This document shows, piece after piece, positions 26,455-28,413 of a stretch of 37,885 bases of DNA. The stretch covers positions 1 to 37,885 of IMG/VR virus record IMGVR_UViG_3300010350_001134, one strand, 5' to 3'. Origin of the DNA: a virus. The notes beneath the pieces were generated by a model that saw only the letters and a list, made by a program, of their open reading frames with translations, was not told where the DNA came from and did no database searches. A program made the position numbers and the translations under genes. Positions within the stretch are counted from its first letter, which is position 1. The number at the start of each line of letters is the position of its first letter.

Positions 26455-28413
26455 ATGATAAAAAAATCTCTTATAATAATATTTTTTCTGGGGATCTCAT
26501 TATCTTCTTTTTCCCAGTCTTTAACAGATACTATCAATATTTGTGAAGTAACTGTTACAGGATCTTATTCTGCAGCAAAACAAACTCCTTTCACTTTTCA
26601 AAATCTTACGCCAAAAGAAATTTCTGTAAGATCTATGGGAACCGAACCAGCAGTTCTTTTATCATATACTCCTTCAATAAATTTCTATTCAGATAATGGA
26701 ACGGGGCTAGGATATATGTACTATCGTTTAAGAGGGATCGACCAAACTCGTATTAATTCAACTCTTAATGGAATCCCCCTAAACGAGCCTGAGGACCAGG
26801 GTATCTATTATAACAACTACGGTGGATTTCTGAATGCAATTTCAAACATTCAGCTTATCCGGGGTGCCGGCCTTTCTAAACCAGGGGTTTCCTCCTATGG
26901 CGGGAGCATTAATTTTTCATCCCTGGAATTTGCTAATAAATTTTCCGGCAATGTAAACCTCCTTCACGGATCCTTTAATACTTGGCAGATGAATGCAGGA
27001 ATTAATACCCCGCATTTCTTTATAATGGGATCCAAATCTTCCACCGATGGTTATCGAGACAACTCATTCAATGATTCCTGGTCCTCTTTTTATGGTGCAA
27101 ATTTTTCGGATAAAAAACATACTTTTAAACTTTATGGATTTGTCGGTCACCAAAAAAATGGAATGGCTTGGCTTGGAGAATCATTAGATAGTATCTATAA
27201 AAATCCAAGATACAATTCTAATACAAAGGATGAAATAGACAATTTTCTTTATATCCATAATCAAGCTTCGTGGCAATATGGCCATTTCAAAACTACCATT
27301 TATCATACTTTCCTAGATGGTTGGTATACAACAGATATGGGTCATTTTGATCCTTCCCATCCTATGGGAGATCTTATATGGAAGTTAGCATTAAGATCTA
27401 ATTGGTTCGGAACGAATGTGAATTATAATTTACCCGTAAAGAATATTTTTTATTTGAATTTGGGGACTAATGCTTATACTTATTCAAGAGGGCATACAGG
27501 AACTTATAATAAAATAAGTGAAGAAAACTATTTTAATGAGGGAACCCGGAATGAATTAGCTCCTTATGCAAAGGGAGAATTAAAATTAAAAACATTTTCT
27601 TTTTATGGAGATATTCAATACAGGCATACAACTTTTTCTTATAAAGGGGGATTGCCGATGGAAACCCAAAAATGGGATTTCTTAAATTGGAGTACTGGAT
27701 TATCTGTTAAAGTAAAGGACAATTCCTATATCTACTACGGATTAGGAAAAACATACAGGGAGCCTACCCGAAATGACTTATTTGCTGGTATGGATGATCT
27801 GGATACGGCTTTATTTAATCCTATGCTTCCCGAAAAGGCTTTGAATAATGAGTTAGGATGGAAATATAAGAAAAATAATATTTCTTTCAATGCCAATATT
27901 TACTATATGGCATTTAGGAATGAAATAGTTCTTAATGGAAAGGTTGAGCCTAATTCCCTTGTATTGCATCAGAATGCTGCTAAATCTTTTCGAAGTGGAT
28001 TAGAGGTTGAAGCCAATTGGAAGGCTACAAAACACTGGGAATTTGTTGCTTCTAACTCATTCTCTTTCAACCGTATACAGCAAGATGAAGAAAGATTTCA
28101 ACCTGTGCTAACACCTTCATTAATAATGAGTTATGATGCCGTGTATAATATGGGTAGCTTCGCGTATACGGGACTTAATGCTAAGTTCAATGGTAAATCT
28201 TACATTGACTTTTCGAATGAGCACACATTACCTTCTTATGCCCTGCTGAGTATTTATGGGGGTCTTAAATGGAAAGGTTTTGAGCTAAGGGGAACTGTAA
28301 ATAATCTTCTAAATGACCTGATTTTAACAAATGCAGTTATATCAGGGGATTCACCATCTTATTTTGTAATGGCGGGTATAAATGGATCATTATCATTAAC
28401 TTATAAATTTTAA
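26455..28413 (+). CDS. TonB-dependent-receptor-like outer-membrane beta-barrel protein (signal peptide, plug-like N-domain, C-terminal aromatic residue)
   Basis: Signal peptide MIKKSLIIIFFLGISLSSFSQ. Plug-like segment EVTVTGS...IRGIDQTRINSTLNGIPLNEPEDQG. Alternating beta-strand pattern. Terminal ...SLTYKF. Confidence 0.5.
   Translation: MIKKSLIIIFFLGISLSSFSQSLTDTINICEVTVTGSYSAAKQTPFTFQNLTPKEISVRSMGTEPAVLLSYTPSINFYSDNGTGLGYMYYRLRGIDQTRINSTLNGIPLNEPEDQGIYYNNYGGFLNAISNIQLIRGAGLSKPGVSSYGGSINFSSLEFANKFSGNVNLLHGSFNTWQMNAGINTPHFFIMGSKSSTDGYRDNSFNDSWSSFYGANFSDKKHTFKLYGFVGHQKNGMAWLGESLDSIYKNPRYNSNTKDEIDNFLYIHNQASWQYGHFKTTIYHTFLDGWYTTDMGHFDPSHPMGDLIWKLALRSNWFGTNVNYNLPVKNIFYLNLGTNAYTYSRGHTGTYNKISEENYFNEGTRNELAPYAKGELKLKTFSFYGDIQYRHTTFSYKGGLPMETQKWDFLNWSTGLSVKVKDNSYIYYGLGKTYREPTRNDLFAGMDDLDTALFNPMLPEKALNNELGWKYKKNNISFNANIYYMAFRNEIVLNGKVEPNSLVLHQNAAKSFRSGLEVEANWKATKHWEFVASNSFSFNRIQQDEERFQPVLTPSLIMSYDAVYNMGSFAYTGLNAKFNGKSYIDFSNEHTLPSYALLSIYGGLKWKGFELRGTVNNLLNDLILTNAVISGDSPSYFVMAGINGSLSLTYKF

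Follow-up and report, generated by a model that had tools for sequence, protein, structure and literature searches.

A TonB-dependent transporter of the outer membrane encoded within the NAD salvage module of a putative huge phage of Bacteroidota, with a candidate role in NAD-precursor uptake

The viral DNA analyzed here comprises positions 1–37,885 of IMG/VR virus record IMGVR_UViG_3300010350_001134, and the whole 37,885-nucleotide stretch is referred to below as the window. Within it, an open reading frame (ORF) running from ATG to TAA encodes a protein of 652 residues, which we identify with near certainty as a TonB-dependent transporter of the outer membrane (TBDT). The gene is embedded among genes for salvage of nicotinamide adenine dinucleotide (NAD), in the order NadE, PncA, PncB, PTH2, TBDT, NDT-like ORF and NadR (Table 1). 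The genes around the TBDT are tightly packed: 11 nucleotides separate it from the PTH2 gene and a single nucleotide from the NDT-like ORF, which is overlapped by NadR over 4 nucleotides. The initial annotation of this DNA, made from the sequence alone, had regarded such a gene as unexpected among metabolic genes; the TBDT instead belongs to the NAD salvage module as an integral and syntenic component.

The same annotation had called the product a TonB-dependent plug-and-barrel protein and had suggested a profile search for the two domains. That search, judged against Pfam gathering scores, finds both. Plug (PF07715) matches residues 42–150 with E = 4.8e-9 and a score of 37.1 bits (cutoff 23.9), and TonB_dep_Rec_b-barrel (PF00593) matches residues 202–618 with E = 1.6e-24 and 88 bits (cutoff 27). 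An AlphaFold2 model, built with 71 homologues as input, has a mean predicted local distance difference test score (pLDDT) of 87.8 and a predicted template modeling score (pTM) of 0.85. It consists of a small mixed N-domain followed by long antiparallel strands and is all-beta past residue ~150, with about 22–24 long strands after residue 160 (the exact number was not counted on coordinates); disorder is confined to the TonB-box segment, residues 20–36. All Foldseek matches of the model in the PDB are full-length TonB-dependent transporters, led by PqqU (9c4o; E = 9e-35, TM score 0.81) and followed by Fiu, YncD, FyuA, FhuA and FecA, with TM scores of 0.76–0.81 over ~670 columns against PqqU, FecA and FhuA. 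The nearest solved relatives by sequence profile are likewise YncD/PqqU (2e-17). The domain profiles, the model and the structural matches all agree with the plug-and-barrel call.

The translation begins with MIKKSLIIIFFLGISLSSFSQ, contains the internal stretch LRGIDQTRINSTLNGIPLNEPEDQG and ends in SLSLTYKF, the final LTYKF including the terminal YKF remarked on earlier. The predicted signal peptide, MIKKSLIIIFFLGISLSSFS, is followed by Q, with cleavage predicted between SFS and Gln21, and has no lipobox Cys. Directly after this predicted site, Gln21 is invariant in the 71 homologues. A Gln in this position is in keeping with the 'Q-rule' for substrates of Bacteroidota signal peptidase I and bears out the Bacteroidota-style signal peptide proposed before. 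The plug-like motif cited in the initial annotation is present as well, although it reads LRGIDQTRINSTLNGIPLNEP, its first residue being L and not I as given there. The alignment of the 71 phage and bacterial homologues has 63 invariant columns. The TonB box, D25-T-I-N-I-C-E-V-T-V-T-G36, aligns with the DTLVVTA box of BtuB and is conserved in the clade of 52 phage sequences to which the window TBDT belongs (D 98%, T 98%, E 80%, V 82%). Of these 52 sequences, 41 end in Phe, as do 56 of 75 bacterial sequences. The ratio of nonsynonymous to synonymous substitution rates (dN/dS) between the window TBDT and its phage relatives is 0.11–0.13, and both GC content (0.348) and GC content at third codon positions (GC3, 0.282) are in line with the neighboring genes. 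Taken together, the conserved functional features, the dN/dS values and the matching GC content indicate a resident, selected and intact gene. A promoter and terminator consensus scan around the gene gave results no better than shuffled sequence.

These properties bear on the idea that the protein remodels the host surface, acting as a decoy or replacement for a receptor TBDT (superinfection exclusion) with transport being secondary. TBDTs are common phage receptors; FhuA, which is bound by T5 pb5 or Llp, is among the structural matches, and TBDT mutations have been discussed for crAss-like phages (PMC10028833). However, the TonB box and plug, which are needed only for energized transport, are strongly conserved in a deep phage clade, dN/dS is ~0.12 and no diversifying pattern was seen. 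Exclusion would also leave unexplained why tight linkage to NadR and PnuC recurs in independent phage lineages (see below). We regard this role as clearly unlikely, the conserved TonB box and low dN/dS arguing for an active transporter. Thus, of the kinds of host-surface remodeling raised in the initial annotation, superinfection exclusion is unsupported, while nutrient uptake is favored in a sharper form, namely uptake of NAD precursors coupled to NadR.

The NadR-like enzyme encoded downstream of the TBDT has intact motifs for both activities: FHKGH and VSATLIR of the nicotinamide mononucleotide (NMN) adenylyltransferase and the Walker A motif GTESTGKT of the ribosylnicotinamide kinase. It aligns over its full length with solved NadR structures (9x6f, 2.3e-37; 8x7f; H. 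influenzae 1lw7, 7e-29). The module order NadE-PncA-PncB-PTH2-TBDT-NadR is syntenic in eight related phage contigs (L004, L006, L008, L009, L010, L011, L100 and L101), whose TBDTs are 45–97% identical. One of these, L008, has PnuC directly upstream, together with NadD-like and Macro-domain genes. IMG/VR viral contigs share the block (TBDT identity 75–98%), and the exact window TBDT protein also occurs on a 52-kb metagenome contig. PTH2 is the conserved upstream neighbor of the TBDT in most phage-clade contigs (for example L006, L100 and L101) and has no obvious share in the NAD function. The ORF between TBDT and NadR is found only in the closest relatives, L011 and L012. Its sole match is nucleoside 2-deoxyribosyltransferase-like (7.3e-5), below the Pfam cutoff, and a search for PDB sequence relatives gave nothing informative. 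The same slot is occupied by a Macro-domain protein in L004 and L008 and by a UDP-glucose dehydrogenase-like gene in L100; it seems to be a variable position for accessory genes with an NAD/ADP-ribose theme.

The association of this type of TBDT with NadR is also found in bacteria. A scan of one genome per species (185,579 species genomes) returned 491 TBDT relatives. The best 80 of these 491 were examined, mostly labeled Bacteroidota with a few metagenome-assembled genome records labeled otherwise, and neighborhood counts were restricted to the 73 loci with at least 2 kb of downstream flank. NadR is directly downstream of the TBDT in 69 of the 73 loci, and PnuC lies between TBDT and NadR in 51 of the 73; in 18 of the 69 NadR-linked loci PnuC is not adjacent to the TBDT. 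NrtR is found upstream in 12 of the 69, and NAMPT in several. Of three loci inspected by hand, two have the order TBDT-PnuC-NadR (Kaistella) and NrtR-TBDT-PnuC-NadR (Flammeovirga). On the strength of these linkage counts we assign the family, which carries neither an NCBIfam nor a Pfam name, as the probable outer-membrane partner of the PnuC-NadR route of nicotinamide riboside (NR) salvage. In the third locus, from Paraflavitalea pollutisoli (L002, 1926–11545), the genes follow one another as NrtR, Nudix, NAMPT, NADAR, PARG-like, ADP-ribosylglycohydrolase, TBDT, NadR and KptA/Tpt1, an extended NAD/ADP-ribose recycling island; NAMPT-containing versions resembling this cluster were seen at six other loci (L018, L019, L034, L068, L078 and L085).

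A Pnu-family permease next to a TBDT is not by itself diagnostic of NAD precursors. Bacteroides thetaiotaomicron pairs an outer-membrane TBDT with a Pnu-family inner-membrane permease for thiamine, the OMthi-PnuT system (PMC6977713), and the substrates of Pnu-family permeases are hard to assign from sequence alone. An importer of thiamine or another vitamin of this type would share with the present family the coupling of a TBDT to a Pnu-family permease that serves a small cationic vitamin. It is set apart by its neighbors: the constant partner here is NadR, often with NrtR and NAMPT, and not thiamine kinases. Rfam searches found no thiamine pyrophosphate (TPP) riboswitch in the window, where they matched tRNAs only, and neither a TPP nor any other riboswitch in 10 bacterial TBDT-PnuC-NadR loci; the window likewise gave no match to an NAD+ riboswitch. 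A thiamine-type importer is accordingly very improbable.

Among sequenced phages the TBDT has a narrow distribution. Homologues occur in 24 GenBank phage records. Nineteen of the matches are near full length, covering at least 80% of the query, and every one of these comes from a genome of at least 540 kb: LR756501, LR756503, LR745206 and LR756502 (635–735 kb) and 15 Prevotella Lak megaphages (540–552 kb), the latter being all the Prevotella Lak megaphages in the GenBank phage collection searched. PnuC is present in all five megaphage loci that were inspected. TBDT-PnuC-NadR is contiguous in LR745206 and LR756502, LR756501 has the order PncB-NadE-TBDT-PnuC-NadR-PncA, and in the circular records of Lak-A2 and Lak-B8 the TBDT, NadR and PnuC genes lie inside ~9–10 kb. 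NadR homologues, in contrast, were found in 800 phage records, which makes the TBDT a specialty of Bacteroidota-type megaphages. It is a megaphage addition to an otherwise common phage NAD module.

A gene of this kind has been interpreted before as a generic auxiliary metabolic gene for nutrients. A gene of the marine megaphage Mar_Mega_1 was labeled 'TonB-dependent receptor (SusC)' and carbohydrate uptake was suggested (PMC9723777), and LR745206, for which a SusC-like function was proposed, does carry a homologue that is 37% identical to the window TBDT. That homologue, however, is directly followed by PnuC and NadR. The window protein, at 652 residues, has only the Plug and barrel domains and lacks the N-terminal extension, as opposed to the ~1000-residue SusC/RagA type, and no SusC/RagA model was among its NCBIfam hits. 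Pfam and profile searches of the window and of the relatives examined found no SusD-like neighbor, and no glycoside hydrolase adjoins the TBDT in these sequences. We attach very little likelihood to a SusC-like carbohydrate importer.

The NCBIfam matches also relate to a second published label. JGI labels homologues 'iron complex outermembrane receptor protein', and the TBDT is weakly similar to the heme/transferrin and siderophore receptor subfamilies, as would suit a receptor that boosts the supply of iron, siderophore or heme during infection. The scores are far under the cutoffs (67.3 bits against 323.75 for TIGR01786 and 56.6 against 223.5 for TIGR01783), and only the C-terminal barrel is covered. 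The neighborhoods carry NAD genes and no iron-uptake genes, and the closest solved relative, though remote, is a cofactor transporter, so an iron-related role is highly unlikely. This relative, PqqU/YncD of E. coli, is closest by both profile and fold and transports pyrroloquinoline quinone (PQQ). It shares with the window protein the compact ~650–700-residue form of a TBDT for a small cofactor. It is only ~16% identical in sequence, is an outgroup to the whole family in the tree, and has no counterpart in gene context, there being no PQQ genes near the window TBDT.

The closest relatives are unnamed. A protein search returned a graded series of unnamed metagenomic TBDT homologues (44–96% identity), below which came TBDTs of cultured Bacteroidota (~665 residues, ~40% identity); the closest Bacteroidota homologues are 37–42% identical over the full length. 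In our reading, the window TBDT is probably a phage copy of this unnamed Bacteroidota family (Kaistella, Flammeovirga, Chitinophaga, Zobellia, Paraflavitalea), which is found in an operon with PnuC and NadR. Both have a length of ~650–667 residues, a signal peptide preceding the invariant Gln, a TonB box and the same plug motifs, and NadR is the downstream partner of bacterial and phage TBDTs alike. The differences are that the phage copies form a clade of their own and have variable inserts between TBDT and NadR, and that the window TBDT has no adjacent PnuC and is part of a larger NAD module with PncA, PncB and NadE.

A neighbor-joining tree of 135 sequences, with 60 bootstraps and PqqU and BtuB as outgroups, separates the TBDT family from PqqU and BtuB in 60/60 replicates. 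The window TBDT and 51 metagenomic homologues form one clade, again in 60/60 replicates, separate from the bacterial sequences, and every member of this clade that was checked has a phage-like context. The TBDTs of LR756501, of LR745206 with LR756502, and of the Lak phages branch elsewhere among the bacterial sequences with poor resolution, and the window clade is grouped with LR756501 in only 13/60 bootstraps. The megaphage TBDTs may represent either several captures from hosts or unresolved deep branches, between which the tree cannot discriminate. The window NadR is 40% identical to the NadR of the Kaistella operon and 29–37% identical to NadRs of phages other than megaphages, which would fit an acquisition of TBDT and NadR together in one cassette.

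These observations point to import of NAD precursors (NR, NMN or NAD) as the probable function of the TBDT, a proposal to which we give a probability of roughly 0.6. The protein would be exported through Sec, cleaved before Gln21 and inserted into the outer membrane by the beta-barrel assembly machinery (BAM) by way of its C-terminal YKF signal. Domain and profile searches of the window found no TonB, ExbB or ExbD, so that energized import would need the host proteins; host TonB-ExbBD would act through the conserved TonB box (DTIxLxEVxVTG). The TBDT would then carry a scarce external pyridine precursor (NR, or NMN or NAD trimmed to NR) into the periplasm. Passage through the inner membrane would be provided by a PnuC that belongs to the host or is encoded beyond the window, related phages having PnuC genes of their own. 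The phage NadR would convert NR to NMN and then to NAD+, while nicotinamide would be recycled in parallel by the phage PncA, PncB and NadE. As a net result, NAD+ may be kept up or rebuilt for phage metabolism, for resistance to NAD+-depleting defenses, or for both. We infer in this way the substrate, the expression and insertion of the protein during infection, its dependence on host TonB and PnuC, and the anti-defense role.

Several points weigh against this proposal. The assignment of the putative substrate rests entirely on gene neighborhood, bacterial and phage, and 4 of the 73 bacterial loci have neither NadR nor PnuC nearby. Searches for PnuC in the 37.9-kb window were negative (tblastn with three PnuC queries; Pfam), which means that the inner-membrane route must be provided by the host or be encoded beyond the window. 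The window also yielded no NadD, and the PncB arm thus needs a host enzyme. It is demanding to produce and export a 22-strand barrel, and to have BAM insert it, in the course of a lytic cycle. Finally, the anti-defense role would be an extrapolation from phages of Enterobacteriaceae.

The known system from which that extrapolation is made is NARP3, in which a phage PnuC-like NR transporter and a NadR-like enzyme (Bas30_87/Bas30_86) import NR and rebuild NAD+ against Sir2-HerA (PMC13464706). It is a two-gene module found mainly in Enterobacteriaceae phages, for which no outer-membrane component is mentioned (PMC13464706). The window resembles it in encoding a full-length bifunctional NadR-like enzyme (9x6f, 2.3e-37) and in a phage-encoded route from external NR to NAD+, and the related megaphages have PnuC beside NadR. 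The window itself has no adjacent PnuC-like transporter and is for this reason not classified as NARP3 proper. Bacteroidota megaphages might possess a complete, envelope-spanning import line for NAD+ precursors (TBDT, PnuC and NadR, with PncA, PncB and NadE), by which environmental pyridine nucleosides or nucleotides would be taken up during infection and NAD+-depleting immunity defeated. We put forward this wider proposal tentatively, at somewhat less than even odds, and the specific anti-defense role would merit lower confidence than NAD-precursor import.

NAD salvage modules are well documented in jumbo phages and KVP40 and include NadV/NatV, pncB-nadD-nadE and pnuC-nadR-nadM (PMC11662467, PMC9503650). 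Like the window, they have clustered genes for Preiss-Handler and NR salvage. The surveys list pncA/B, nadE, nadR, nadM, NAMPT and pnuC (PMC11662467, PMC9503650, PMC7824862) but name no outer-membrane or TonB-dependent component, and no outer-membrane component is mentioned in the NrtR regulon paper. In the literature searched we found neither a paper linking a TBDT to NAD-precursor uptake nor an experimental characterization of any TBDT of this family. The presence of TBDTs in megaphages is already on record. Within that literature, linking them to the uptake of NAD precursors appears to be new, as does the bacterial operon on which this link is based, and the published SusC-like and iron-receptor labels for such genes are not supported by the present evidence.

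If the proposal is correct, a widespread unnamed family of Bacteroidota TBDTs would acquire a substrate class (NR, NMN or NAD), and the outer-membrane gap in Bacteroidota vitamin-B3 salvage would be filled. The megaphage TonB receptor, earlier guessed to be SusC-like or iron-related, would become part of the NAD+ economy, and NAD+ reconstitution by NR import, as in NARP3, would extend to another phylum in a three-tier form that includes the outer membrane. To our knowledge this would be the first active transporter of the outer membrane that is encoded by a phage and has a substrate assigned to it (phage outer-membrane proteins were not surveyed). A virus that invests in a BAM-assembled, TonB-energized machine would also bear on how long and how deeply huge phages re-engineer their hosts.

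Table 1. Coordinates and supporting matches of the features discussed for the window.
Feature	Position	Strand	Evidence or remarks
TonB-dependent outer-membrane transporter (TBDT)	26455..28413	+	ATG-to-TAA ORF, 652 aa
Parts of the TBDT (residues)	signal peptide 1-20; TonB box 25-36; plug ~42-150; barrel ~160-652		C-terminal YKF
NAD synthetase (NadE)	18973..19848	+	Pfam 1.2e-34; syntenic in relatives
Isochorismatase-family protein, probably nicotinamidase PncA	20206..20814	+	Pfam 4.7e-30; syntenic
Nicotinate phosphoribosyltransferase (PncB)	23429..24664	+	NAPRTase 1.2e-57, NAPRTase_N 3.8e-35; syntenic
PTH2-type peptidyl-tRNA hydrolase (archaeal/eukaryotic type)	26012..26443	+	1.5e-29
NDT-like cytoplasmic ORF, 167 aa	28415..28918	+	between TBDT and NadR
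NadR-like bifunctional enzyme, no helix-turn-helix domain	28915..29940	+	phrog_3462 1.5e-65
tRNA arrays	309-6181, 10155-10227, 35592-37766		arrays at both window ends
SiaC-family regulatory phosphoprotein homologues	3431-3853, 4184-4561	+	tandem, among tRNA genes; 9.6e-27, 1.9e-27
Major-vault-protein-like protein (MVP-like), 848 aa	6403-8949	+	MVP shoulder 4.4e-27, MVP repeat 7.5e-13
TROVE/Ro60-like RNA-binding protein	11587-13287	+	phrog_850, 4.7e-28
HNH/NUMOD3 homing-endonuclease-like ORF	25365-26027	+	
HNH/NUMOD3 homing-endonuclease-like ORFs	1759-2199, 2815-3417, 5462-6091		
Four small paralogous ORFs	31865-32224, 32221-32676, 33939-34358, 34687-35181	+	

The remaining content of the window concerns the nature of the element. 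All credible genes are on the + strand, ARAGORN predicts 21 tRNA genes (22 tRNA matches by Rfam), and a T4 gp30.3 homologue is present. Two radical-SAM enzymes, a thioredoxin and a dCMP deaminase are encoded as well, and genes for ribosomal protein S21 and for a protein with an RF-1 domain occur in more distant relatives of the block. The only matches of the MVP-like protein among GenBank phages are in LR756500 (462 kb, 53%) and LR756501/LR756503 (735 kb, 49.5%). The window itself yielded no gene for a capsid, terminase or tail protein, and the phage assignment thus rests on the relatives. A megablast comparison of 24 kb of the window with GenBank phages gave tRNA-sized matches only, meaning that there is no close sequenced relative.

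The lack of structural genes in the window, together with bacterial homologues of up to ~40% identity, might suggest that the TBDT is a bacterial gene on a mis-binned or chimeric host fragment, or on an island outside the phage. We consider this extremely improbable. The gene lies inside a co-directional block of uniform GC and GC3, with tRNA arrays, homing endonucleases and T4 gp30.3 on both sides; this gene order is found again in viral contigs of IMG/VR and in other metagenomes; the 52-sequence window clade is monophyletic (60/60) and apart from bacterial sequences; and the MVP-like gene is about 50–53% identical to genes of 462–735-kb phages. Judged by this gene content and synteny, the window most probably belongs to a huge phage of Bacteroidota, not to a plasmid or island. 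The phage-like context described in the initial annotation is confirmed by the co-directional genes, tRNA arrays, gp30.3, MVP-like gene and synteny with IMG/VR contigs. Its alternative of a phage-plasmid or integrated element is disfavored, since the TBDT sits with NadR and PnuC in two Lak genomes and in 635–735-kb phages.

Some further observations were made. The tRNA at 10155–10227 has a CTA anticodon (an amber suppressor, given the label 'Pyl' by ARAGORN). TAG serves as stop in 3 of 40 ORFs, and the window genes are intact under the standard code. Two pairs of ORFs are in frame across one TAG (23060–23428 with PncB, and 32742–33914 with 33939–34358), making suppressor-dependent read-through fusions possible. 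NadR is followed by a 1.4-kb gap in which there are only small ORFs. A stretch of about 700 bp after NadR (30162–30860) has no convincing ORF and no Rfam match; it contains a G+C-rich terminator-like hairpin at 30692–30712, with a T-run behind it, and could be the operon end or a non-coding RNA.

The HNH/NUMOD3 ORF that lies two genes upstream of the TBDT is missing in L011, a 97%-identical relative in which only ~230 bp separate orf24724 from PTH2, and it looks like a recently inserted, mobile element. The four paralogous ORFs have no significant Pfam match and share the N-terminal motif NF-x-RG-x-(D/S)PK-x-(A/S)M-x-(I/V)G. The SiaC-family homologues are unusual for a phage. The TROVE/Ro60-like gene has a GC content of 0.45 and GC3 of 0.44, against ~0.35 in its neighbors, and is conserved at 60–64% in L006 and L008.

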